A DNA stretch of 64,000 nucleotides, taken from sequence record MH992122.1; one strand, written 5' to 3'. Source of the DNA: Escherichia phage OLB35. The notes below the pieces were generated by a model. It had not been told where the DNA came from. It saw only the letters and a list, made by a program, of their open reading frames with translations, and did no database searches. The translations under genes and the position numbers were made by a program. Shown one piece after another: positions 3,828 through 52,001 of this stretch (position 1 is its first letter; each line of letters begins with the position of its first letter).

Positions 3828-4784
3828 TTATTTGAAAGGTTTTACCATATGGAAATTTTGTTTAAAACGTTTTACATAATCGTCATGTCCTAAGCTTTGG
3901 TACATACTTACAACTTTGCTGTAGTTTTCCCAAGCGTATTCACGGAACCAGCCTGACGTGATTGAAGTACAGACTTTTTCTAATGCCATCATAAAACTAT
4001 CACGTGGATGGATTTCAAAGTTATTAGGAATCTGAGAACGTTCTAACGCTAGTACACATGATTCTTCGTATACGCCGGCTAATTTGACCATTTCTGGTAA
4101 TGATTCGAACTTCTCGCGTGAGGTCATGACTTCAGAACCATCTTTCATATAAAATGTATACGCTGGACGGTCTGTTAGTGCAATGGCTTCGTGAATAGTA
4201 TCATGGTCATACGTATAGATGTCATCTTTAAAGAATGCGCTTTTAGAAGTGTCAAGAACTGGGTGAGCATAGTTCAAGGTTTCTTTCTGGCGTTTCAGCA
4301 TAATTTCAGTAAGTTCATCGTTCAGTGTAACACCTTTACCACGAAGATACTGAATATGGTTCATAGTCTTTAAAAAGAATGGATTATTTTTCTTGAAACG
4401 ATGAGACATCTTAATTGCAAGACACATCTCAGGAGTTGCCCAGTAAAACCCGTTCAAACGGTCTTTAGTCAAATTTTTCTTGGCGTATTTTAAAAGGTCA
4501 TAAGAAGACGTGAAATCTTCAGGAGTGAGTTCACCGACTAATTCACGGACATTAGTGATTGCCGGAACAATATATGCTTCAAAATGAGTTTCGCGTCCAT
4601 TATGGAAGCATTTGAAAACTTGGACATCAGGGTTATCTTGGTGAACATATACACCCATCATTTGATTTTTGAATACATTCCAAGAACCTTGGTCCGCAAT
4701 AAAGTCCCAATCACTATTTTTGATAGCGCTAGAATCAATAAGGCCGTGATAGTGAAGTGCACGAGAACCAATAACTAACATCAT
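3828..4784 (-). CDS. hypothetical protein, possible minimal nucleotidyltransferase fold
   Basis: 318 aa; N-terminal GS...SDWD resembles the GS-x(n)-D-x-D NTase motif (spacing longer than typical); no confident homolog recalled. Confidence 0.55.
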   Translation of the reverse strand: MMLVIGSRALHYHGLIDSSAIKNSDWDFIADQGSWNVFKNQMMGVYVHQDNPDVQVFKCFHNGRETHFEAYIVPAITNVRELVGELTPEDFTSSYDLLKYAKKNLTKDRLNGFYWATPEMCLAIKMSHRFKKNNPFFLKTMNHIQYLRGKGVTLNDELTEIMLKRQKETLNYAHPVLDTSKSAFFKDDIYTYDHDTIHEAIALTDRPAYTFYMKDGSEVMTSREKFESLPEMVKLAGVYEESCVLALERSQIPNNFEIHPRDSFMMALEKVCTSITSGWFREYAWENYSKVVSMYQSLGHDDYVKRFKQNFHMVKPFK

Positions 4785-39425: not shown

Positions 39426-40997
39426 ATGAAATTTAATATCTTAAGTTTGTTTGCTCCATGGGCAAAAATGGACGAACGTGATTACAAAGACCAAGAAAAA
39501 GAAAATTTAGAATCGATCACCACACCAAAATTGGACGACGGTGCGAAAGAATACGAAGTATCTGAAAATGAAGCACAGCAAACATATAATGCTATGTTTC
39601 AGAGAATGTTCGGTAGCCAAGAACCTGGGCTCAAATCAACCCGTGAATTAATCGATACGTATCGAAATTTGATGACGAACTATGAAGTGGATAATGCAGT
39701 CTCTGAAATAGTTTCCGATGCTATCGTATATGAAGATGATACAGAAGTCGTTTCTATAAATTTAGACAACACAAAATTTAGCCCAAATATCAAATCAATG
39801 ATGTTGGATGAATTTAACGAAGTGTTAAATCATTTATCTTTCCAACGTAAAGGTTCAGACCATTTTAGACGTTGGTATGTGGATTCTCGAATTTTCTTCC
39901 ATAAAATTATTGACCCTAAACGCCCTAAAGAAGGTATTAAAGAGCTTCGTCGTTTAGACCCACGTCAAGTTCAATATGTCCGTGAAGTTATTACAACCAC
40001 TGAAGCCGGTGTTAAAATAGTCAAGGGTTATAAAGAATATTTCATTTATGACACATCACACGAATCTTATGCTTGTGATGGTCGCATATATGAAGCTGGC
40101 ACAAAAATAAAAATCCCTAAAGCCGCGATTGTTTATGCCCATTCTGGTTTAGTTGATTGCTGTGGTAAAAATATCATTGGTTATTTGCATCGGGCTATTA
40201 AGCCGGCGAACCAATTAAAACTTCTTGAAGATGCCGTCGTAATTTATCGTATTACTCGTGCTCCAGATCGTCGTGTATGGTACGTTGATACAGGTAATAT
40301 GCCTTCAAGAAAAGCAGCAGAACATATGCAACATGTTATGAATACGATGAAAAACCGTATTGCATATGATGCTACTACAGGCAAGATTAAAAACCAGCAG
40401 CATATTATGTCGATGACCGAAGATTATTGGTTACAACGACGTGATGGTAAAGCAGTAACAGAAGTTGATACATTACCGGGTGCAGATAATACCGGAAATA
40501 TGGAAGATGTACGTTGGTTCCGTAATGCGCTTTATATGGCTTTACGTATTCCTATTACCCGTATTCCAAGCGACCAAGGTGGTATACAGTTTGATGCTGG
40601 TACTTCTATTACACGAGATGAATTGTCATTTGGTAAATTTATTCGTGAGCTGCAACATAAATTTGAAGAGATATTCCTAGACCCGCTTAAAACTAATTTA
40701 ATTCTTAAAGGAATTATTACAGAAGATGAGTGGAATGATGAAATAAATAATATTAAGATAAAATTTCATCGGGATAGTTATTTCTCGGAATTAAAGGATG
40801 CTGAGATTCTGGAGCGTCGCATTAATATGCTTCAGATGGCCGAACCATTTATTGGTAAATATATTTCTCACAGAACAGCTATGAAAGATATTCTTCAGAT
40901 GTCTGACGAGGAAATTGAACAAGAGGCTAAGCAAATTGAAGAAGAGTCGAAAGAGGCTCGTTTCCAAGACCCCGACCAAGAACAAGAGGATTTTTAA
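39426..40997 (+). CDS. 20: gp20 portal vertex protein
   Basis: 523 aa (T4 524). Confidence 0.9.
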
Positions 40998-41236
40998 TGG
41001 ACGATTTAATTCAAGCTATTAAATCAAACGACCTCGTTGCTACTCGAAAGTTTTTTGAAAGTGCAATGGCAGAAAAAACGGTTCGTTTGATTGAAGCACG
41101 CAAAGCAGAAATCGCTTCTCAATTTTTGATTGAAGGCGAAGAACCTGAAGAAGAAGAAAAGAAAGCTAAAGCTTCGGAAGACGACGCTGATGAAGGCGAT
41201 GACGACGAAGACGAAGATGATGAGGACGATGAATAA
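40997..41236 (+). CDS. 67: gp67 prohead core protein
   Basis: 79 aa with poly-acidic C-terminus; position. Confidence 0.7.
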
Positions 41237-41661
41237 TGTATCTTATCCCTGAATCTTATGAATTGGTACTCGAAAATGTCGAAGCACTTATTCCTGAAGC
41301 ACAGGGCCGAATCGATGCATTGTCTTCTGCTCTCGATATTGACGATATAAATACTATTATCGAGAACATGCTTGAAACTGAAACGGATTTAGCTGTTGCA
41401 ATGGCTTCCATTATTAATGAAGAGCAGTTAAATGAGTTTATCGTTAAACATGTTTCTTCTCGTGGTGAAGTCACCCGCACTAAAGACCGTAAAACTCGTG
41501 AACGTAACGCGTTCCAAACAACCGGTCTTTCTAAAGCAAAACGTAGACAAATCGCTCGTAAGGTCGTTAAAGCTAAAAAAGCTAACCCTTCAGGCCAAGT
41601 TAAAGGCATGCGTAAGCGTAAAAAAGCTCTTAAACGTCGTAAAGCATTAGGATTAAGCTAA
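41236..41661 (+). CDS. 68: gp68 prohead core protein
   Basis: 141 aa, same length as T4 gp68. Confidence 0.7.
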
Positions 41662-42302
41662 TGAATAAACCCGAGTTACTTATTGAAACTTGGGGTCAAC
41701 CCGGTGAGATTATTGATGGCGTTCCAATGTTGGAATCTCATGATGGAAAAGATTCTGGCTTAAAACCAGGGCTTTATATAGAAGGTATTTTTCTTCAGGC
41801 AGAGGTTGTTAACCGAAATAAACGTTTATATCCTAAACGTGTTTTGGAAAAAGCCGTAAGCGACTATATTAAAGAACAAGTCGCAACCAAACAAGCCCTT
41901 GGAGAATTAAATCATCCACCTCGTGCAAATGTTGACCCTATGCAAGCCGCTATCATTATTGAAGATATGTGGTGGAAAGGAAACGATGTATATGGACGTG
42001 CTAGAATTATTGAAGGTGACCATGGTCCCGGCGATAAATTAGCTGCTAATATACGAGCTGGTTGGATTCCAGGTGTTTCCTCTCGTGGTCTTGGTTCTTT
42101 AACCGACACCAATAAAGGGTACCATATCGTGAACGAAGGATTTAAATTAACCGTCGGTGTAGATGCCGTATGGGGTCCTTCTGCTCCAGATGCTTGGGTT
42201 ACTCCTAAACAAATATCAGAATCAGAAAATTCGGTGGAAATCACCAAAAACAGTGCTGATGAAGCATTTAAAGCTCTCGCAGAGAGTTTAAAAGCATTAT
42301 AA
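41661..42302 (+). CDS. 21: gp21 prohead core protease
   Basis: 213 aa (T4 212); position. Confidence 0.85.
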   Translation: MNKPELLIETWGQPGEIIDGVPMLESHDGKDSGLKPGLYIEGIFLQAEVVNRNKRLYPKRVLEKAVSDYIKEQVATKQALGELNHPPRANVDPMQAAIIIEDMWWKGNDVYGRARIIEGDHGPGDKLAANIRAGWIPGVSSRGLGSLTDTNKGYHIVNEGFKLTVGVDAVWGPSAPDAWVTPKQISESENSVEITKNSADEAFKALAESLKAL

Positions 42303-42305
42303 ATA
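42298..42305 (+). promoter_or_regulatory. late promoter TATAAATA (gene 22)
   Basis: exact TATAAATA overlapping the gp21 stop. Confidence 0.5.
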
Positions 42306-42335
42306 ATAATGTAATCTAAACCACAGGACACTAAA

Positions 42336-43148
42336 ATGATCAAAGAACAACTTTTGAAAGAAGCTCAGAATATCGAGACTTCAGTTGCTCTTAATAGTGT
42401 TTTCGAATCAGTAGAACTGTCTCCGGACGTTAAAGCTAATTTCAGCACTGTATTCGAAGCCACCGTTAAGCAGGAAGCAGTCAAACTAGCTGAATCTCAT
42501 ATCAAAGCTATCGCCGAAAAAGCCGAAGAAGAAGTTGAAAAGGCTAAAGAAGATGCTGAAGAGAAAGCTGATAAAAAATTGGCTGAACAAGCTTCTAAAT
42601 TCCTGGACCATCTTGCAAAAGAATGGCTCGCAGAAAACCAAATCGCAGTTGATAAAGGCATTAAAGCTGATTTGTTCGAATCCATGCTTGGTGGTCTGAA
42701 AGAACTGTTTGTTGAACATAACGTTGTTGTTCCAGAAGAATCTGTAGATGTTGTAGCAGAAATGGAAGAAGAGCTGGCCGAACATAAAGAAGAAACCGCT
42801 CGTTTGTTCGAAGAAGTTACCAAACGTGATGCATATATCAATTACGTTCAGCGTGAAACCGCTATTAATGAAAGCGTAAAAGACCTGACTGAATCTCAGA
42901 AAGAAAAAGTTATTGGCCTGGTTGAAGGTATGGATTATTCTGACGCATTTGGTACTAAGTTAACTGCTATTGTAGAAATGGTTAAAGGTTCTACTAAAGA
43001 AGAAGCCGCTATTACCGAAAGTATAAATACAGTTGACAATGACGCTGCCGGTCTTAATTTTGTTGCCGAAGCAGTTGACACTACCACAACTCAGGTAGAA
43101 CAGAATTCTAATGTAAGTTTATATGCGAAAGTCGCATCTCGTTTCTAA
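42336..43148 (+). CDS. 22: gp22 prohead core scaffold
   Basis: 270 aa, Glu/Lys/Ala-rich helical protein (T4 269). Confidence 0.8.
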   Translation: MIKEQLLKEAQNIETSVALNSVFESVELSPDVKANFSTVFEATVKQEAVKLAESHIKAIAEKAEEEVEKAKEDAEEKADKKLAEQASKFLDHLAKEWLAENQIAVDKGIKADLFESMLGGLKELFVEHNVVVPEESVDVVAEMEEELAEHKEETARLFEEVTKRDAYINYVQRETAINESVKDLTESQKEKVIGLVEGMDYSDAFGTKLTAIVEMVKGSTKEEAAITESINTVDNDAAGLNFVAEAVDTTTTQVEQNSNVSLYAKVASRF

Positions 43149-43165
43149 TTTAAAGGTTAACACAA

Positions 43166-44734
43166 ATGACTACTATCAAAACTAAAGCTCAGCTCGTAGA
43201 CAAATGGAAAGAACTGCTGGAAGGTGAAGGCCTGCCGGAAATCGCTAATAGCAAGCAGGCTATTATCGCTAAAATCTTCGAAAACCAGGAAAAAGATTTC
43301 GAAGTATCCCCTGAATATAAAGACGAGAAAATCGCTCAGGCATTTGGTTCTTTCTTGACCGAAGCTGAAATTGGTGGTGACCATGGTTATAATGCTCAGA
43401 ACATCGCAGCAGGTCAAACCTCTGGTGCAGTAACCCAAATTGGGCCGGCAGTTATGGGTATGGTTCGTCGTGCTATTCCTAATCTGATCGCTTTTGATAT
43501 TTGTGGTGTTCAGCCTATGAACAGCCCGACCGGTCAGGTATTTGCTCTCCGTGCAGTATATGGTAAAGACCCTATCGCTGCTGGCGCTAAAGAAGCTTTC
43601 CATCCGATGTATGCCCCAGACGCGATGTTCTCTGGTCAGGGTGCTGCTAAGAAATTCCCAGCTCTGGCTGCTGACACTACTACTGTTGTAGGTGATATCT
43701 ATACTCACTTCTTCCAAGAAACTGGTACTGTATATCTGCAAGCTTCTGCTGTCGTAACACTTGATTCTGGTGCAACTGATGCAGCTAAATTAGATGCAGA
43801 AGTTAAGAAACAAATGGAAGCTGGTGCACTGGTAGAAATCGCTGAAGGTATGGCTACTTCTATCGCTGAACTCCAGGAAGGTTTCAACGGTTCTACCGAT
43901 AACCCATGGAATGAAATGGGCTTCCGTATCGATAAACAAGTTATCGAAGCTAAATCTCGCCAGCTGAAAGCTGCTTACTCTATCGAATTAGCACAAGACC
44001 TCCGTGCAGTACACGGTATGGATGCTGATGCTGAACTGAGCGGTATTCTGGCTACAGAAATTATGCTAGAAATCAACCGTGAAGTTGTTGATTGGATTAA
44101 CTACTCAGCACAGGTCGGTAAATCTGGTATGACCCTGACTCCTGGTTCTAAAGCTGGTGTATTTGACTTCCAGGACCCGATTGATATCCGTGGTGCTCGT
44201 TGGGCCGGTGAAAGCTTTAAATCTCTGTTGTTCCAGATTGATAAAGAAGCAGTTGAAATTGCTCGTCAAACCGGTCGTGGTGAAGGTAACTTCATTATCG
44301 CTTCCCGTAACGTAGTTAACGTACTGGCTTCAGTTGATACTGGTATTTCTTACGCTGCACAGGGTCTGGCTTCTGGTTTTAATACCGACACTACTAAGTC
44401 TGTATTTGCCGGTGTACTTGGTGGTAAATACCGCGTATACATCGACCAGTATGCTAAACAGGATTACTTCACCGTTGGTTACAAAGGCGCTAACGAAATG
44501 GATGCAGGTATCTACTATGCTCCTTACGTTGCACTTACCCCACTGCGTGGTTCCGATCCTAAGAACTTCCAGCCGGTAATGGGCTTTAAAACTCGTTACG
44601 GTATCGGTGTTAACCCGTTTGCTGAAAGTTCCCTGCAGGCTCCAGGTGCTCGCATCCAGTCCGGTATGCCGTCTATCCTGAACAGCCTTGGTAAGAACGC
44701 TTACTTCCGCCGTGTATATGTAAAAGGCATCTAA
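43166..44734 (+). CDS. 23: gp23 major capsid protein
   Basis: 522 aa; ...LLEGEGLPEIANSKQAIIAKIFENQEKDF... near identical to remembered T4 gp23. Confidence 0.95.
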   Translation: MTTIKTKAQLVDKWKELLEGEGLPEIANSKQAIIAKIFENQEKDFEVSPEYKDEKIAQAFGSFLTEAEIGGDHGYNAQNIAAGQTSGAVTQIGPAVMGMVRRAIPNLIAFDICGVQPMNSPTGQVFALRAVYGKDPIAAGAKEAFHPMYAPDAMFSGQGAAKKFPALAADTTTVVGDIYTHFFQETGTVYLQASAVVTLDSGATDAAKLDAEVKKQMEAGALVEIAEGMATSIAELQEGFNGSTDNPWNEMGFRIDKQVIEAKSRQLKAAYSIELAQDLRAVHGMDADAELSGILATEIMLEINREVVDWINYSAQVGKSGMTLTPGSKAGVFDFQDPIDIRGARWAGESFKSLLFQIDKEAVEIARQTGRGEGNFIIASRNVVNVLASVDTGISYAAQGLASGFNTDTTKSVFAGVLGGKYRVYIDQYAKQDYFTVGYKGANEMDAGIYYAPYVALTPLRGSDPKNFQPVMGFKTRYGIGVNPFAESSLQAPGARIQSGMPSILNSLGKNAYFRRVYVKGI

Positions 44735-44758
44735 TCTTAATTGATTAAATCTTATTTT

Positions 44759-44788
44759 GGGAGACTTCGGTCTCCCATTTTTGGTTTT
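44759..44788 (+). terminator. rho-independent terminator after gene 23
   Basis: GGGAGAC-TTCG-GTCTCCC followed by ATTTTTGGTTTT; identical stem-loop to the one at 25409. Confidence 0.6.
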
Positions 44789-45056
44789 ATTTCTGTGCAA
44801 TTTCGATGTAAGTTTTCAAAATATTTTGCCAATTAGGCATACCTTCTTGGACATATGCTGGAGAACCGTCTTTGTTTTTGAATGATGCAAGTTTATCAGT
44901 GGCCCAATAGCCTTTAGCTCGAGCTTCAGAATCAACTTTCATCCATACTTTGTTGAAGGCATTACCATTAACTTTTGCACCATATTTTTCTACTAACTTA
45001 ACTGCTTCAGCTTCCAGAACTTTTAAAGTATCTCGTAAGAAACGTGCTTTAGTCAT
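44787..45056 (-). CDS. hypothetical protein on an early-promoter cassette, antisense to the late cluster
   Basis: 89 aa; preceded by the module M leader GACTTATCAACTACAGAGGAG and a promoter. Confidence 0.5.
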   Translation of the reverse strand: MTKARFLRDTLKVLEAEAVKLVEKYGAKVNGNAFNKVWMKVDSEARAKGYWATDKLASFKNKDGSPAYVQEGMPNWQNILKTYIEIAQK

Positions 45057-45086
45057 TTTGTTTACTCCTCTGTAGTTGATAAGTCT

Positions 45087-45116
45087 ATAGTATCACATAC
45101 CAAATACGTTGTAAAC
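45087..45116 (-). promoter_or_regulatory. early promoter plus conserved leader (module M copy)
   Basis: minus strand GTTTAC (45111-45116), 18-nt spacer, TACTAT (45087-45092); the leader matches the modules at 8162-8635. Confidence 0.5.
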
Positions 45117-45122
45117 AATCTT

Positions 45123-45130
45123 TATAAATA
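45123..45130 (+). promoter_or_regulatory. late promoter TATAAATA (gene 24)
   Basis: exact TATAAATA 27 nt upstream of the gp24 ATG. Confidence 0.55.
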
Positions 45131-45156
45131 ATCTATATCACATAAGGAAAAATGCA

Positions 45157-46440
45157 ATGAGTAAAATCCAAAAATTATTGCGTGAATCTACAACGTCTAC
45201 TAGCAACTCAATTGGTCGCCCAAATCTCGTTGCTTTGACTCGCGCTACGACTAAATTAATATATTCTGACATTGTAGCAACACAAAGAACTAATCAACCT
45301 GTTGCTGCTTTTTATGGTATTAAATATCTTAACCCAGACAACGAATTAACGTTTAAAACTGGTGCTACTTATGCAGGTGAAGCTGGATATGTAGACCGAG
45401 AAAAAATTACCGAGCTCACAGAAGAATCAAAAGCCACACTAAATAAAGGTGATTTTTTCAAATATAATAATATCGTTTATAAAGTGTTAGAAGATACACC
45501 ATTTGCAGATATTCAGGAAAGTGATCTAGAATTAGCTCTTCAGATTGCGGTCGTTCATTTAAAGGTACGGCTATTTTCAGATGCAGCGGTAACAAGCAAA
45601 TTTGAAAGCTCTGGTAGCGAAATTTCTGATGCAAGATTCCAGATTAATAAATGGCAAACTTCAGTCAAATCTCGTAAACTTAAAACTGGCCTCACGGTTG
45701 AATTAGCGCAAGATTTAGAAGCGAATGGATTTGATGCCCCTAACTTCTTAGAAGATTTGCTTGCTACTGAAATGGCTGATGAAATTAATAAAGATATTCT
45801 TCAGTCTTTAATTACTGTATCGAAACGTTATAAAGTTACTGGAATTACTGACACCGGATTTATTGACTTGAGCTATGCTTCCGCTCCAGAAGCAGGTCGT
45901 TCGTTATATCGAATGGTGTGTGAAATGGTATCACACATTCAAAAAGAGTCAACTTATACTGCAACGTTTTGCGTAGCTTCAGCTCGTGCAGCTGCTATTC
46001 TTGCTGCTTCAGGTTGGTTAAAACATAAACCAGAAGATGATAAGTATCTTTCACAAAATGCTTATGGATTCTTGGCAAATGGATTACCTCTTTACTGCGA
46101 TACTAACAGTCCATTAGATTATGTGATCGTTGGCGTAGTAGAAAATATCGGCGAAAAAGAGATTGTAGGGTCCATCTTTTATGCTCCATACACTGAAGGA
46201 ATGGATTTAGACGACCCGGAACATGTCGGTGCATTTAAAGTTGTAGTTGATCCGGAAAGCTTACAACCGTCTATAGGTTTATTGGTTAGATATGCTTTAT
46301 CAGCAAATCCTTACACAGTAGCAAAAGATGAAAAAGAAGCGAGAGTAATTGATGGCGGGGACATGGATAAAATGGCAGGACGTTCAGACTTGTCTGTTTT
46401 ACTCGGTGTTAAATTGCCTAAAATTATTATAGATGAATAA
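45157..46440 (+). CDS. 24: gp24 head vertex protein
   Basis: 427 aa, same length as T4 gp24. Confidence 0.9.
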   Translation: MSKIQKLLRESTTSTSNSIGRPNLVALTRATTKLIYSDIVATQRTNQPVAAFYGIKYLNPDNELTFKTGATYAGEAGYVDREKITELTEESKATLNKGDFFKYNNIVYKVLEDTPFADIQESDLELALQIAVVHLKVRLFSDAAVTSKFESSGSEISDARFQINKWQTSVKSRKLKTGLTVELAQDLEANGFDAPNFLEDLLATEMADEINKDILQSLITVSKRYKVTGITDTGFIDLSYASAPEAGRSLYRMVCEMVSHIQKESTYTATFCVASARAAAILAASGWLKHKPEDDKYLSQNAYGFLANGLPLYCDTNSPLDYVIVGVVENIGEKEIVGSIFYAPYTEGMDLDDPEHVGAFKVVVDPESLQPSIGLLVRYALSANPYTVAKDEKEARVIDGGDMDKMAGRSDLSVLLGVKLPKIIIDE

Positions 46441-46442
46441 AC

Positions 46443-46470
46443 GAAAAAGGGACCTTACGGTCCCTTTTTC
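46443..46470. terminator. bidirectional rho-independent terminator
   Basis: AAAAAGGGACC-TTAC-GGTCCCTTTTT between convergent genes 24 and rnlB. Confidence 0.55.
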
Positions 46471-46471
46471 G

Positions 46472-47479
46472 TTATGATACTAATTCAATCCATGCAGGAC
46501 GCAGAACATCTTGCACCATTCGGACTAATTCTTTCTTAACAAGATTCGGATTATCAGATGATGTTAATACAATACCTTCACGAGAAGTTTCTTCCAGAAT
46601 ATCTTGAACAGTCAATCCCATCACTTTGCCAAAATCTTTTGGCGTTACAGCCCCAATCTTAGAAATCACATTGTTAACACGATTTAATGTAACATAACAA
46701 GCTAGAACATCAAGCAAGTTTTTGTCAATTTCGGTTAATGGAACCTGAGTTTTAATAGGCTTATCAGACTTTTTCTTTTCACTGAATTTAGAGTTCTTGC
46801 ACTTAATAGCTACACGAGTACCGTTTGGCAGCCATTTAGGGAAACAAGGCTTCAGAACATAACCTTCTGCAGTATTATCACCAATAACATTAGCATCAAA
46901 TACACAATTATTTGCTTCGACAAGGTCTTCCGATGCCGTAGTGTTATAAGCGGCTAAGACGGAATCAAGGTCATTTGGAATCATGATAAGAGAATCAAAT
47001 GTTCCACGACCAAGCATTGGTGCCATTTTAAAACCGAATTCATTACAGAAATCTTGCATTTCGTAATCACTCATGTAATAAGTATCACCGCTTTCCGTGT
47101 TTATGATGATATCGAATACATAGAAATCTTTTTCACCGTAGTCAACACCTTTCTGAATTCCACCACCAGCGAATTCACCAAAGATTTGATATGTCACTGG
47201 CACTGAAGTTGAAATACTGCCCATGACTTCTTGAACACCTTTAATAGCCTTATCATACTTCTTGAGTACGATTTCATAACCATAAAAATCTTCTGCTGGA
47301 AGAATAGGGCCTGTGCGCTTGGCGCATGTGACGTTGTCACGTTCAATTATTAACGAGAAGTTAGTCCCATGGATTTTCTCACGTGCTACCCAAACACCAG
47401 TAGTCAAACCATTAGTGTAGAGTTTTTCAATAAACTTAGAGTTGTAGTGGTTTTCAAGACTGCTGTATTTCTTAAACAT
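46472..47479 (-). CDS. rnlB: RNA ligase 2
   Basis: 335 aa; [20 protein letters not shown]...KIHGTNFS (KxHG ligase motif) closely matches remembered T4 Rnl2. Confidence 0.9.
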
Positions 47480-47570
47480 AAATCACCATTATAAATAATA
47501 ATATCAAAATAATTAGCAGAGACTCTATCTCCGACCCGATGTTTAATTTGAATGGATAGAACCTAGATTC

Positions 47571-47597
47571 ATTATACCATCAAAAAATGTAAAGCAT
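47571..47597 (-). promoter_or_regulatory. candidate MotA-dependent middle promoter for rnlB
   Basis: minus strand ATGCTTTA then 13 nt then TATAAT. Confidence 0.3.
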
Positions 47598-47598
47598 A

Positions 47599-47850
47599 TT
47601 AGAACTTGATTTCTATCCAATGTCCATCACGTTGGTCATGATTAATTTTGTACTGAAAGCCGTTATCACGAAGCCATTGACCGACTTGCTCGGTGATAGT
47701 TAAATCATTCTTTGATGGATAGTACGTGAATTGTGTCTGGCCTTTGTCAGCGGCTTTCTCTGCCATCACAGAGAAGTTAGTAATAAAATCACTCAACAAA
47801 TTGGCTTTAGTGGCCAGAGCCCTTTCTCTTAATTCCTGTGCAAAACTCAT
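47599..47850 (-). CDS. hypothetical protein (T4 24.2 position)
   Basis: 83 aa ORF. Confidence 0.5.
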   Translation of the reverse strand: MSFAQELRERALATKANLLSDFITNFSVMAEKAADKGQTQFTYYPSKNDLTITEQVGQWLRDNGFQYKINHDQRDGHWIEIKF

Positions 47851-48047
47851 TTCTTCACCTTTTTGTTAATCAAACGTTTACGGTATACAACTTTTTCTTT
47901 TGCTTTAAACTTTGACCGAGCTGTCTCGGCTTTAGTCCATAGTAATCCAACTTCTTTAGGTTGTAAACCAATTTTTTGAGAAATTTCTACGAATGAAAAT
48001 CCCGCCTCATGTAATGTATAAACTTCAACTTCAGCTCTCATAATCAA
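47847..48047 (-). CDS. hypothetical small basic protein, possible HTH (T4 24.3 position)
   Basis: 66 aa, Lys-rich C-terminus. Confidence 0.45.
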   Translation of the reverse strand: MIMRAEVEVYTLHEAGFSFVEISQKIGLQPKEVGLLWTKAETARSKFKAKEKVVYRKRLINKKVKK

Positions 48048-48121
48048 TCCCGTATTATTTGGTTTGTGCCATTATATACATCAATCTCAAGTTGTGTTTT
48101 GTATGCTTTAAAAACGAAGAA

Positions 48122-48137
48122 AGGGGCCGAAGCCCCT
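48122..48137 (-). terminator. hairpin AGGGGC-CGAA-GCCCCT downstream of hoc
   Basis: 6-bp GC stem with tetraloop; T-rich on the minus strand. Confidence 0.4.
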
Positions 48138-48142
48138 TACGA

Positions 48143-49273
48143 TTATGGATATGTATAGATGATACCAGTTTCCAAAGCAGTTTTATGGATGATGTATCCA
48201 TTACGTGATTCTTGAACATCAACTTCTGGATAGTCTTTCATCATCTTCTGAAGAGTGTAACGATCCAGGTAGTATTTACTATCTGGATCTTCAGTTTTCC
48301 AATCTTTACCTTCTTCAGTCATTTTTTGGATTTCATCCATAACCCACCAACCGCACCAGATGTAAGCTGAAGTACGATGTGGAAGAGGATGAACATAAGG
48401 TAATTCACCTTCTGGTTCAATTGGAGTCCGTTCAGCAATAACAACTTCAGCGGTTGAACTAATTGTCTTTGAAGTATAATTATCTTTAGTTAATACTGCT
48501 TCAACTTTAATTGTATGAGTACCCGCTGAGGAGGTATCAATACTGTAAGTATCGGTAGAATTACTTTCTGCTACGTTGTCTTTCTTCCAAGTATAAACAA
48601 TAGCAGTACCACTAGGTTGACTGCTTACAGATGCTGTTAAAGTTGTTGCTGTTCAATAATGTTGCCGCCGGAGAAGCCGGAGTAACAGCGATGGTAGAAT
48701 TATTGTCTTCTTATTAACAGTGATAGTTGTTGACGCTTCAGCTATTTCTGGATTTCCTGCGGAAAGTGCCGTAATTTGGGCAACACATTTAATTTTTTTA
48801 ACTCCGCTTGTGGTAGGAGTGTAATTGAATGTAGCAGAAGTTGCTTCGCTCACAGGAGAACCGTCAACGTGCCATTGATACGTAGCAGATGCGCCTGACG
48901 GTTGAGAAGCTAAAGCCGCAGTAAATTTAACAGCTGTTCCGATTACTCCAGCAGCAGGGCTATCAGGAGTTATAGCCAGAGTAGTTGTCTGAGTTTTATT
49001 TTTAACTGTGATAGTTGCAGTAGTTTCTGCTGTTTCAGCTTCAGCTTCTGGAACTGTATTTGTTGCAACTACTTTAATAGTCTTTTGACCGGCAGGTCCT
49101 TTTAGAGTATAATCCATTGTAGCAGCCGTAGAATCCTGCGCTATACCATCCAAAGTCCAGACGTTAGTAATAGTACCATCTGGAGTTTCACCTGCAGGTG
49201 TAGCAGTGAATGTTTGTGAACCTCCAATAACCCCTGTAGGAGTTAAAGGAGATAACGTGACAGTGAACGCCAT
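48143..49273 (-). pseudogene. hoc: hoc (Ig-like outer capsid decoration protein), disrupted
   Basis: N-terminal Ig-like repeats and the C-terminal capsid-binding domain (MDEIQKMTEEGKDWK...) are in one frame, interrupted by TGA at 48653-48655; about 17 codons before the stop read as an Ig-like segment only in another frame, implying a -1/+1 indel pair; total span 1131 nt as I remember T4 hoc. Confidence 0.7.
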
Positions 49274-49282
49274 AAGTTATCC

Positions 49283-49951
49283 TTATTTTAATGTTACGAA
49301 AGAAGAATTACGAGTTTCACGAATTAGAACTGATCCATCGCGATTAATATAATAAATTAAGCTAAATAATGTTTGGTGGGCAGAAGCGTGCACAAAACTA
49401 GTTGGGCGAGATTTCCAATCTGGGGTTTCGGCTATCCATTGATAAATCCACCAAGGAACAGTAACATACCCTGGGCCTTTGCCTAATTTAATGAGTGTAG
49501 GACTAAAATTTTCAGGCAGAACAAATTTTACTTCTTTATTTACCTCTGACTCAGGCTCTTTTTCAGATTCAACAACCTGAGTAATTGCTTCTTCGAATTT
49601 ATCATGGTCGAATTCTTTTTCTTGTTCGACAACTTCTAATACTTCAACTTGGTCTGTTGGAGAATCAAACAACAGAATAGCTTCTTCTTTAACTTCTTCG
49701 TTGGTGAAATTAACACCGTCCACATCATCTGCGGCAGTAATTAAATCGGTGATAGATAATCCATCAGTTTCAGGTAACGGTTCATCAGCCAGTGCGTTAA
49801 GAGCTTCTTCGATATCAATAACAATATTATCGAATGATTTTGTTTTCTTAACACTAATGCCAAATTGTTCCGCATATTCAAACAGTTTAGCTTTGGCTTC
49901 CTTTTTATCAGAAAGAGCACGTAACTCTTCAATATAGTCTTTATCGATCAT
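49283..49951 (-). CDS. inh: inh-like protein (by position)
   Basis: 222 aa acidic protein between hoc and uvsW, as inh is in T4. Confidence 0.45.
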   Translation of the reverse strand: MIDKDYIEELRALSDKKEAKAKLFEYAEQFGISVKKTKSFDNIVIDIEEALNALADEPLPETDGLSITDLITAADDVDGVNFTNEEVKEEAILLFDSPTDQVEVLEVVEQEKEFDHDKFEEAITQVVESEKEPESEVNKEVKFVLPENFSPTLIKLGKGPGYVTVPWWIYQWIAETPDWKSRPTSFVHASAHQTLFSLIYYINRDGSVLIRETRNSSFVTLK

Positions 49952-49964
49952 GGTATTTCCTCAT

Positions 49965-49972
49965 TATAAATA
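49965..49972 (+). promoter_or_regulatory. late promoter TATAAATA (uvsW)
   Basis: exact TATAAATA 30 nt upstream of the uvsW ATG. Confidence 0.5.
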
Positions 49973-50001
49973 TAACTATATTTATTACATGGTAATTTGA
50001 C

Positions 50002-51516
50002 ATGACTGACATTAAAGTACATTTTTATGATTTTAGTCACGTGCGCATTGAATGCGACGAAAGCGTGTTCTATGAATTACGCGACTTTTTTAGCTTTGAA
50101 GCCGATGGGTACAAATTCAACCCGCGTTACAAATATGGGAACTGGGATGGTAGAATTCGACTTTTAGATTACAATCGTTTGTTACCATATGGACTTGTAG
50201 GACAAATAAAAAAGTTCTGTAACAATATGAGTTATTCTGTATGGATTGACCCTAAAATCTTTGAGACCGAAGACCTTACCAGGGAAGATTTTGACGCATG
50301 GCTTTCTAAACAAGAAATTTATTCAGGCAACGCCAAAATCGAACCACATTGGTATCAAAAAGATGCAGTATATGAAGGTCTAGTTAATCGTCGTCGAATT
50401 TTAAACCTTCCGACATCAGCAGGTAAATCACTAATCCAAGCACTTTTAGCTCGATATTATCTAGAGAACTATGAAGGTAAAATTCTCATTATCGTCCCTA
50501 CAACAGCATTGACAACCCAGATGGCTAATGATTTTGTTGATTATCGCTTGTTTAGTCATTCGATGATTAAGAAAATTGGCGGTGGTGCCGATAAAGCGGA
50601 CAAATCTAAAAACGACGCTCCAATTATTGTTGGCACATGGCAAACGGTAGTTAAGCAGCCTAAAGAATGGTTCTCTCAGTTCGGTATGATGATGAACGAT
50701 GAATGCCACTTAGCAACAGGCAAAAGTATTTCTTCAATCATCTCAGGATTAAATAATTGTATGTTTAAATTCGGTTTATCCGGCTCATTAAGAGACGGAA
50801 AAGCCAATGTAATGCAGTACGTAGGTATGTTCGGCGAAATCTTCCGTCCTGTTAGCACGTCTAAATTAATGGAAGACGGACAGGTAACTGAGCTTAAGAT
50901 TAATAGTATTTTCCTTCGTTATCCGGACGAATTCGCCACTAAATTAAAAGGTAAAACATACCAAGAAGAAGTTAAAATTATTACCGGACTAAAACGACGT
51001 ACAAAGTGGATTGCCCAACTTTCAGTCAAATTGGCCAAGAAAGACGAGAACGCCTTTGTAATGTTTAAACACGTTACACACGGTAAAGAAATATTTGAAG
51101 CTATTAAAGAGCTTGGATACGAAAAAGTTTATTACGTATCAGGTGAAGTTGATACTGAAACACGTAACGCGCTTAAAGTCATGGCAGAAAATGGTAAAGG
51201 CATTATTATTGTCGCATCATATGGAGTATTCTCTACTGGTATTTCAGTCAAGAATCTTCATCATGTTATTTTTGCCCATGGTGTTAAATCAAAAATTATC
51301 GTACTTCAAACAGTAGGTCGTGTGCTTCGTAAGCATGGTTCTAAAGCTGTTGCTACAGTTTGGGATCTCATCGATGACGCAGGTGTAAAACCTAAATCAT
51401 TAAATACTAAAAAGAAGTATACTCATCTTAATTACTTGTTAAAACACGGTATTGATCGTATCCAACGTTACGCTGATGAGAAATTTAACTATGTAATGAA
51501 AACAATTAATTTATAA
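50002..51516 (+). CDS. uvsW: UvsW DNA/RNA helicase
   Basis: 504 aa; MTDIKVHFYDFSHVRIECDE... matches T4 UvsW; helicase motifs. Confidence 0.9.
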   Translation: MTDIKVHFYDFSHVRIECDESVFYELRDFFSFEADGYKFNPRYKYGNWDGRIRLLDYNRLLPYGLVGQIKKFCNNMSYSVWIDPKIFETEDLTREDFDAWLSKQEIYSGNAKIEPHWYQKDAVYEGLVNRRRILNLPTSAGKSLIQALLARYYLENYEGKILIIVPTTALTTQMANDFVDYRLFSHSMIKKIGGGADKADKSKNDAPIIVGTWQTVVKQPKEWFSQFGMMMNDECHLATGKSISSIISGLNNCMFKFGLSGSLRDGKANVMQYVGMFGEIFRPVSTSKLMEDGQVTELKINSIFLRYPDEFATKLKGKTYQEEVKIITGLKRRTKWIAQLSVKLAKKDENAFVMFKHVTHGKEIFEAIKELGYEKVYYVSGEVDTETRNALKVMAENGKGIIIVASYGVFSTGISVKNLHHVIFAHGVKSKIIVLQTVGRVLRKHGSKAVATVWDLIDDAGVKPKSLNTKKKYTHLNYLLKHGIDRIQRYADEKFNYVMKTINL

Positions 51517-51524
51517 GGGCTTCG

Positions 51525-51540
51525 GCCCTTAGGAGATAAA
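51525..51540 (+). other. stem-loop AAGGGC-TTCG-GCCCTT upstream of the uvsW.1 RBS
   Basis: perfect hairpin with UUCG loop. Confidence 0.35.
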
Positions 51541-51541
51541 A

Positions 51542-51775
51542 ATGGTACTTGAATTTAAACAATTTTTATACGAAGCATCTATTGACGAATTCATGGGTAA
51601 AATTGCTAGTTGTCATACCTTAGAAGGGCTTGAAGAATTGGAAGCTTATTATAAGAAACGTATAAAAGAAACGGAATTAAAAGATACAGACGATATTTCT
51701 GTCAGGGATGCCTTAGCAGGTAAGCGTGTCGAACTTGAAGGCGACAATGATGAGGATGAGGAAGAAGACTTCTAA
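51542..51775 (+). CDS. uvsW.1-like small acidic protein
   Basis: 77 aa; position after uvsW. Confidence 0.55.
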   Translation: MVLEFKQFLYEASIDEFMGKIASCHTLEGLEELEAYYKKRIKETELKDTDDISVRDALAGKRVELEGDNDEDEEEDF

Positions 51776-51784
51776 TTAAAAAAA

Positions 51785-51806
51785 GGCCCGACCTTTTTGG
51801 AAGGGC
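51785..51806 (-). terminator. hairpin GGCCC...GGGCC with a T-run on the minus strand
   Basis: flanked by an A7 run on the plus strand; 3' of the minus-strand small ORF. Confidence 0.35.
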
Positions 51807-51833
51807 CAAAAACCATAGGCAAAAAAGGTAACA

Positions 51834-52001
51834 CTATAGTAAAAGTTGGGTTTCGTTCAATTGCTCTTCTGAACTTTCTGAAACCGGCAATTGTTGTACA
51901 TAATTATAACAAGGACCAGGATGTGCTGGACCTTTGTCTGTTTCAACAACCAATGCAGAATCGATTGGAGTTTTACAGACAACACAAATCTTATCTGACA
52001 T
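51834..52001 (-). CDS. small Cys-containing protein (uvsY.-2-like)
   Basis: 55 aa MSDKICVVCKTPIDS...PGPCYNY; late promoter just upstream; not in the ORF track (under 60 aa). Confidence 0.4.
   Translation of the reverse strand: MSDKICVVCKTPIDSALVVETDKGPAHPGPCYNYVQQLPVSESSEEQLNETQLLL

Follow-up and report, generated by a model that had tools for sequence, protein, structure and literature searches.

Three proteins of Escherichia phage OLB35, the portal protein gp20, the gene 67 product gp67 and the small protein UvsW.1, end in runs of acidic residues, which raises the question whether such tails are kept for a function, and for which one, or are low-complexity sequence that is simply tolerated. 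The question was addressed in a 64,000-nucleotide stretch of the phage genome (sequence record MH992122.1), referred to below as the window. A first-pass annotation of the same letters had treated the three tails as one group and proposed that they may be interaction or DNA-mimic surfaces. We favor, with moderate confidence, a reading in which these are three independent conserved acidic tails on known T4-family proteins, each with its own likely role, and in which the ends of genes 20 and 67 are dual-coded.

The 12.6 kb surrounding the tails share 97–98% identity with Escherichia phages CCU7 and phiC120 and 96.7% with RB69; by sequence identity, the window is that of a Mosigvirus, an RB69-like T4-type phage. 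Following the RB69 annotation, the gene order is 20, 67, 68, 21, 22, 23, 24, rnlB, 24.2, 24.3, hoc, inh, uvsW, uvsW.1, uvsY.-2. The genes that carry the tails, and the tails themselves, are as follows.

39426..40997, plus strand: gene 20, encoding the portal protein gp20 (523 amino acids; Pfam Portal_T4, PF07230, E-value 1.3e-195)
40968..40994, plus strand: gp20 tail DPDQEQEDF, residues 515–523
40997..41236, plus strand: gene 67, encoding the prohead core protein gp67 (PIP; 79 amino acids; Pfam GP67, PF17634, E-value 6.5e-20; PHROG 1064 at 1.1e-25)
40997..41134, plus strand: conserved N-terminal part of gp67, residues 1–46, predicted to be helical and ending in L-I-E
41135..41233, plus strand: poly-acidic tail of gp67, residues 47–79 (3,729 Da; 26 of 33 residues Asp or Glu; net charge −23)
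51542..51775, plus strand: uvsW.1, encoding a small helical protein (77 amino acids; PDB 2JPN at 3.2e-38; Pfam UvsW-1, PF11637, at 3e-26)
51743..51772, plus strand: UvsW.1 tail DNDEDEEEDF, residues 68–77, with Phe77 as the terminal residue

The identities are well supported, gp20 aligning over its full length with T4 gp20 (PDB 6UZC, 3JA7) and gp67 matching the Pfam GP67 model over residues 1–79 of 79 at 71.8 bits versus a cut-off of 27. Gene 67 lies between portal gene 20 and gene 68, 5' of protease gene 21, an order also present in nine other T4-type phages. The C-termini of all three proteins were recovered letter for letter as they had been given, including the DNDEDEEEDF of UvsW.1. The range assigned to them, 40997–51775, begins with gene 67 and ends with uvsW.1; it takes in many unrelated genes (68, 21, 22, 23, 24, rnlB, hoc, inh and uvsW), and the gp20 tail lies just outside it.

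When tail acidity was ranked among the 84 putative genes of the window, as called by a crude procedure based on open reading frames (ORFs), gp20, gp67 and UvsW.1 had the three most acidic C-termini, and only gp20 and UvsW.1 combined an acidic run with a C-terminal phenylalanine. Asp and Glu together account for 13.5% of the window proteome. At this background, the binomial chance of the 16 acidic residues among 18 in the gp67 tail is approximately 1e-12, and that of the 8 among 10 in the UvsW.1 tail approximately 4e-6.

Conservation of the UvsW.1 tail was counted in the 62 returned sequences that have an intact C-terminal region. Phenylalanine is the C-terminal residue in all 62, position −3 is Asp or Glu in 62 of 62 and position −4 in 61, the last 12 residues are free of Lys and Arg throughout, and the length of the tail is nearly constant at 14–16 residues. 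The acidic run with its terminal Phe is also found in RB49, a 44RR-like phage, RB43 and an Aeh1-like phage, at UvsW.1 identities down to 47%, and in a 30-sequence alignment that includes these four distant phages only 20 columns are invariant, F77 among them. The AlphaFold2 model of UvsW.1 is a three- or four-helix bundle that superimposes on the nuclear magnetic resonance structure 2JPN with a template-modeling score of 0.72, and its residues 70–76, with a predicted local distance difference test (pLDDT) score below 50, are predicted to be disordered. A Foldseek search with this model returned 2JPN only and gave no informative remote fold.

The position of uvsW.1 bears on the level at which this conservation acts. 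The gene is located directly 3' of the helicase gene uvsW (uvsW ends at 51516 and uvsW.1 starts at 51542), and the next gene, uvsY.-2 (51834..52001), is convergent. Since no gene on the same strand follows, the conservation of the UvsW.1 tail must act on the protein.

50002..51516, plus strand: uvsW, encoding a superfamily 2 helicase (Pfam UvsW_N, ResIII, DEAD and Helicase_C; named after the RB69 annotation)
51776..51812: A-run, GGCCC...GGGCC inverted repeat and T-run following uvsW.1

A conserved bidirectional terminator has been described at the uvsW.1 3' position in six T4-type genomes (PMC1524935). A simple terminator scan made no call after uvsW.1, probably due to its 8-nucleotide loop limit.

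Two further observations concern uvsW.1 and its product. A GGGC-TTCG-GCCC hairpin with a UUCG-type tetraloop (51517..51528, plus strand) lies between the uvsW stop codon and the uvsW.1 ribosome-binding site, GGAG at 51532..51535, and RB69 has a similar GGGGCTTCGGCCCC hairpin after hoc. Among the orthologs, the 96-residue UvsW.1 of Enterobacteria phage vB_EcoM_IME339 has an internal segment of about 20 residues in two tandem copies (CQTLEGLEELEAYYKKRVK twice); it is otherwise of the T4 type and keeps the acidic tail ending in Phe.

To our knowledge, UvsW.1 has no established function and no known binding of single-stranded DNA (ssDNA). It reportedly forms a complex with UvsW and inhibits strand annealing by UvsW, a result attributed to Nelson and Benkovic (2007). 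Tails of the same general kind occur elsewhere: that of T7 gp2.5 ends in ...DEDGDF and binds the gp2.5 cleft in competition with ssDNA, and the tails of T7 gp2.5, T7 gp4 and bacterial SSB dock in basic or hydrophobic pockets of their partners. UvsW.1 shares with these proteins a disordered acidic run that ends in Phe on a replication or recombination protein, and its tail is similar in composition to the ...EEADEDGDF end of T7 gp2.5. Of the features that characterize tails of the SSB and gp2.5 type, an acidic disordered C-terminal segment (8 of 10 residues Asp or Glu) and an invariant C-terminal aromatic residue are both present in UvsW.1. By analogy with the gp2.5, gp4 and SSB tails, the UvsW.1 tail would serve as a docking or ssDNA-like peptide that inserts into a basic or aromatic site of a partner; docking on a partner is probable, and UvsW is the most likely one. 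Perumal et al. (2013), as cited in PMC5314882, found UvsW to bind gp32 via the acidic C-terminal tail of gp32.

A more specific scheme can be built on this analogy, in which the UvsW.1 tail would plug the site at which UvsW binds ssDNA or the tail of gp32, and so shift UvsW between its annealing and unwinding activities, or would be a decoy for host proteins that bind SSB tails, and in which the portal tail might likewise attract a basic constituent of the core, the gp68 tail for example, and so nucleate the prohead core. We regard this scheme as speculative and rather unlikely. Binding to the sliding clamp gp45 was also considered for tails that combine acidic residues with a terminal Phe. 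Clamp-binding motifs need paired hydrophobic residues, as in the C-terminus of the RB69 polymerase, and the candidate was rejected on the grounds that such pairs are absent.

The tail of gp67 presents a different pattern of conservation, in which composition is kept and sequence is not. It was compared across 120 orthologs and eight further lineages that were reached via their portal genes. A head of about 46 residues followed by an acidic tail is the common plan in T4-type phages of enterobacteria, Pseudomonas, Acinetobacter and Aeromonas, and the head ends in [L/M/I]-I-E-G-E-E (V-T-E-G-E-E in 44RR). Among the 120 orthologs the tails measure approximately 20–46 residues, average 74% Asp and Glu with 0.4% hydrophobic residues, and carry 14–25 net negative charges. 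Around the junction, I45, E46, G47, E48, E49 and P50 are invariant in 13 enterobacterial-type sequences, and G47 and E48 in all 21 aligned sequences. Variation is concentrated beyond this point: 47 Mosigvirus-type sequences comprise 8 distinct heads and 42 distinct tails, the tail being 27–33 residues long in 46 of them and 14 in one truncated cluster member, and the T4-type set comprises 6 heads and 44 tails of 27–36 residues. AlphaFold2 predicts a helical hairpin (helices 2–9 and 13–43, pLDDT 87–90) for the head and a non-regular coil (pLDDT about 48–60) for the tail.

The DNA that encodes the gp67 tail is an imperfect GAC/GAT/GAA repeat, and the variability of the tail is in keeping with slippage in GAN-triplet DNA under selection for charge only. 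The same repeat gives rise to a 40-amino-acid Lys-rich ORF (41130..41252, plus strand), which is the +1 frame of the GAA/GAT repeat coding for the tail and was rejected as a gene. That all three tails are neutral low-complexity expansions, made and resized by slippage in GAN-GAN runs and tolerated because they are disordered, would account for the imperfect repeat, for the many length variants of the gp67 tail in near-identical phages (42 tails versus 8 heads) and for the KVP40-like phage that is devoid of a long gp67 tail. Such drift would not maintain a net charge between −14 and −25 with near-zero hydrophobic content across 120 sequences and several genera, nor an invariant IEGEEP junction, nor the near-fixed length and invariant Phe of the UvsW.1 tail in 62 and a further four stand-alone orthologs, and we consider neutral expansion very unlikely.

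A probable fate for the gp67 tail is suggested by the junction itself. The T4 head protease gp21 cuts after L/I-x-E (PMC9026906), T4 gp67 is cut into fragments (PMC9026906, PMC9958956), and the 341 copies of gp67 in T4 proheads are followed by approximately 139 retained copies of a 3.9 kDa gp67 fragment in mature heads (PMC9026906, Table 1). The window gp67 has two L/I-x-E motifs, an LIE ending at residue 33 and the LIE|G ending at residue 46. The tail freed by a cut after E46 has a calculated mass of 3.7 kDa here and 3.6–4.1 kDa in T2- and T4-type sequences; the N-terminal fragment 1–33/34, at 3.73–3.78 kDa, is nearly equal in mass, which counts against our assignment, and therefore mass alone cannot assign the 3.9 kDa fragment. 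The RB69 annotation of gp67 as "precursor to internal peptides" points to the tail. So does the acid-soluble peptide of T-even heads, which Hershey is reported to have found in T2 to be rich in Asp, Glu and Lys. The tail is probably the fragment of about 3.9 kDa that is kept in mature T4 heads. We propose that the helical 46 N-terminal residues build into the prohead scaffolding core and that the tail would add charge to it as a structureless polyanion, selected for charge rather than for sequence, for which the gp68 C-terminal tail, internal proteins or the shell may be basic partners; gp21 would then cleave it off at LIE|GEEP, yielding the fragment of approximately 3.9 kDa that partly stays in the mature head.

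Retention of some 139 copies of a gp67 fragment in the head means that it could enter the cell with the DNA, and this is one point in favor of the tails being DNA mimics, that is, polyanions that fill DNA-binding sites, the injected gp67 peptide titrating host defence proteins and the UvsW.1 tail filling the ssDNA site of UvsW. The likeness of the UvsW.1 tail to that of T7 gp2.5, a competitor of ssDNA and the one precedent for such mimicry, and the binding of the gp32 acidic tail by UvsW are compatible with it as well. The known phage DNA mimics, Ocr and ArdA among them, are folded, with carboxylates placed at the spacing of the DNA backbone. No folded scaffold of this kind was seen in the gp67 and UvsW.1 tails, which are predicted to be low-confidence, disordered coil; moreover, ejection or binding of the gp67 peptide is hypothetical and the assignment of the retained fragment tentative. 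We judge DNA mimicry, which had been part of the initial suggestion, to be unlikely. An explanation that needs no specific partner at all is that the tails are entropic bristles, keeping small, abundant, helix-forming subunits soluble before assembly. The tails are indeed disordered and highly charged, they are located on small helical proteins, and in gp67 it is the composition, not the sequence, that is conserved; the invariant Phe of UvsW.1, the protease-site junction of gp67 and the retention of a fragment in heads would all be left unexplained, which makes this explanation distinctly improbable.

The gene that follows gene 67 encodes gp68, whose C-terminal tail is of opposite charge.

41236..41661, plus strand: gene 68, encoding a prohead core protein (PHROG 1049 at 3.6e-68)
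41461..41658, plus strand: basic C-terminal 66 residues of gp68 (net charge +23)

In its N-terminal half gp68 is acidic instead (net −14). The basic tail of gp68 is conserved across Straboviridae, with a similar tail in an Ackermannviridae phage, and is more widely conserved than the acidic tail of gp67. Per copy, the net charge is −28 for gp22, −21 for gp67 and +9 for gp68, and the T4 copy numbers that enter into the core charge are approximately 576 for gp22 and 341 for gp67 (PMC9958956, PMC9026906). The prohead core is overwhelmingly negative, with positive charge supplied by gp68 and by the basic internal proteins. That the gp67 tail pairs electrostatically with gp68 is attractive as a hypothesis. 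The acidic tail of gp67 and the basic tail of gp68 do not strictly occur together, the KVP40-like phage and the Ackermannviridae phage being exceptions. As to other basic termini in the region, the most basic C-terminus in the window (...YRKRLINKKVKK) belongs to the small counterpart of RB69 gp24.3 (47847..48047, minus strand).

In cyanophages, a different acidic sequence takes the place of the gp67 tail. These phages are usually described as having neither gp67 nor gp68 (PMC1079782). Synechococcus phage S-ShM2 encodes at the gene 67 position (4017..4346) a 109-amino-acid protein with a net charge of −25, whose acidic C-terminal half is rich in Pro, Thr and Gln and whose sequence is unrelated to gp67; it may be a gp67 analogue.

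The third tail, that of gp20, is conserved over a considerable distance. An acidic run with a terminal Phe is kept in the portals of Dhakavirus, Jiangsuvirus, 44RR, RB49-like, KP15 and KVP40-like phages and persists down to 46% portal identity, the exceptions being one Acinetobacter phage portal that ends in Leu and another that has no terminal hydrophobic residue. In a wider survey of 150 portal representatives clustered at 50% identity, 18 of the 47 portals of up to 530 amino acids end in Phe, Trp or Tyr, versus a background of 9.4% (p approximately 1e-7). Residues 517–524 of T4 gp20 are disordered in the cryo-electron microscopy model (PMC4493910), and the crown domain of the portal lies inside the capsid (PMC4493910, PMC9958956). 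The gp20 tail would thus be a short disordered acidic extension of the crown, ending in Phe and facing the prohead interior, where the core nucleates.

The ends of genes 20 and 67 are also subject to a constraint of another kind. Genes 20 and 67, and likewise 67 and 68, overlap, with stop and start joined as TAATG, and the Shine-Dalgarno sequence of each downstream gene lies within the last codons of the upstream one.

40986..40990, plus strand: GAGGA, the Shine-Dalgarno sequence for gene 67, within codons for Glu-Asp in the gp20 tail
41222..41226, plus strand: GAGGA, the Shine-Dalgarno sequence for gene 68, within the final four codons of gene 67 (GAG GAC GAT GAA)

In nine of ten sequences GAGG or AGGA is found 10–16 nucleotides 5' of the gene 67 start, in the last codons of gene 20. 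The embedded GAGGA is kept in every examined lineage in which the downstream start overlaps or abuts the upstream stop, except at the Acj133 67/68 junction, which has AAGGA in the last codons; in lineages with an intergenic spacer, the Shine-Dalgarno sequence is located in the spacer, as in ValKK3, where the 13 nucleotides between genes 20 and 67 carry it. Codon choice follows the same pattern. GAG accounts for 14% of the Glu codons in nine genes of the region, and the gp67 tail of the window, with 12 Glu codons, uses it once, in the embedded gene 68 Shine-Dalgarno sequence. All five lineages examined in which the gene 68 start overlaps or abuts the gene 67 stop have GAG as the fourth-from-last codon of gene 67, and in three of them it is the only GAG of the tail; it is not at this position in Whisky and KP15, where the spacer carries the Shine-Dalgarno sequence, nor in Acj133. 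The final codons of genes 20 and 67 double as the GAGGA ribosome-binding site of the overlapping next gene. The ...DDE end of gp67, present in 109 of 120 sequences, and the ...E-[D/E]-F end of gp20 therefore reflect, in part, constraints at the nucleotide level.

It is possible, though on balance we doubt it, that the C-terminal conservation of gp20 and gp67 is mainly nucleotide-driven, reflecting the Shine-Dalgarno sequences of the coupled chain 20-67-68-21, with a protein tail of little function. The placement of GAGGA in the last codons of overlapping or abutting lineages (Acj133 67/68 excepted) and in the spacer elsewhere, the fixation of the otherwise rare GAG at the fourth-from-last gene 67 codon in five lineages, and the DDE end of gp67 are what such a constraint would produce. 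It covers only the last two to four residues, and neither the 30-residue polyanion of gp67 nor the terminal Phe of gp20 falls within its reach; the gp20 of ValKK3 ends in ...DDHGF despite having its Shine-Dalgarno sequence in the spacer; and the explanation is inapplicable to UvsW.1, whose gene ends before a terminator-like hairpin and a convergently oriented neighbor.

A reading in terms of conserved, functional protein tails has to contend with a number of other observations. Dual coding weakens a purely protein-level interpretation, in particular for gp20, where the embedded ribosome-binding site may account for most of the conservation of the tail. By composition, the gp20 tail (5 of 10 residues Asp or Glu, binomial chance approximately 6e-3, that is, about 0.5 such tails expected over the 84 genes) is unremarkable, conservation being what sets it apart, and the longer, more distant portals of the survey have very variable C-terminal extensions, some of them basic. 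For gp67, the KVP40-like phage ValKK3 has no long tail (55 amino acids, ending ...DGEINQED), and a long tail is likewise absent from the protein at the gene 67 position of the Ackermannviridae phage; ValKK3 does have the basic tail of gp68, and therefore gp67–gp68 pairing is not obligatory. As regards UvsW.1, its helical bundle is not the OB-fold of the ssDNA-binding proteins that bear SSB-Ct and gp2.5 tails, and its tail is without the I-P-F tip of the bacterial SSB tail (D-D-D-I-P-F). UvsW.1 is not an SSB, and therefore the parallel is an analogy of mechanism and implies no family membership. Finally, in Vibrio phage EniLVp02 the UvsW.1 domain has no acidic tail ending in Phe and is fused into a larger protein.

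The EniLVp02 protein (PP209424.1, 350..953), annotated as "DNA helicase", has the UvsW.1 domain at its N-terminus and continues, where the acidic tail would be, with a Lys/Glu/Ala linker of mixed charge and another domain. PHROG 14207, with 274 positions, seems to represent this fused form.

Taken together, the ortholog comparison found all three tails conserved, and a complete absence from orthologs, which had been named as grounds for abandoning the first-pass annotation, is not what is seen. Given this conservation, an interaction surface is a reasonable reading of the tails; this part of the proposal is plausible and is best supported for UvsW.1. The tails do not form a single class, being mutually unrelated. 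Novelty is low, since all three are present in T4: the acidic ends of gp67, UvsW.1 and gp20 are visible in T4 sequences and structures of proteins that are long known and well studied. What the comparison adds differs from tail to tail. The strict invariance of the UvsW.1 terminal Phe provides a precise, testable handle and is the one modest lead that is left. The gp67 data suggest a tail that is selected for charge alone and is located beyond a conserved protease-site motif, which fits with the acidic internal peptide of T-even heads. Engineering of the gp20 and gp67 C-termini, whether for portal fusions or head display, must allow for dual coding.

One neighboring gene deserves mention. The gene for the head outer capsid protein, hoc (48143..49273, minus strand), is apparently disrupted: the ORF that begins at 49273 stops after 206 amino acids, at least two frame changes occur near 48650–48700, and the C-terminal capsid-binding part continues in another frame to 48143. 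Relative to the 471-residue RB69 hoc product, about 285 nucleotides are missing, roughly one immunoglobulin (Ig)-like repeat. This could be a real pseudogene, Hoc being dispensable, or an assembly error in repeated Ig-domain DNA.

The closest known systems are the T4 proteins themselves. The last 14 residues of T4 gp20 (PDB 3JA7, 6UZC) are identical to those of the window gp20, with no relevant difference between the two. T4 gp67 (PF17634) shares with the window protein its gene position, the helical head, the IEGEEP junction and a poly-Asp/Glu tail ending in DDE, and differs in tail sequence and length only: T4-type tails have 27–36 residues with DSDDKDDKK motifs, and the window tail has 33 residues with a KKAKAS insert, on a head that is 59–65% identical to T4-type heads. 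T4 UvsW.1 (2JPN, PF11637) is 89% identical to its counterpart here over the structure-aligned region, is likewise encoded after uvsW and likewise carries an acidic tail with a terminal Phe; the T4 protein ends in DSDDEVEESF and that of the window in the slightly more acidic GDNDEDEEEDF, no functional difference between the two being apparent.

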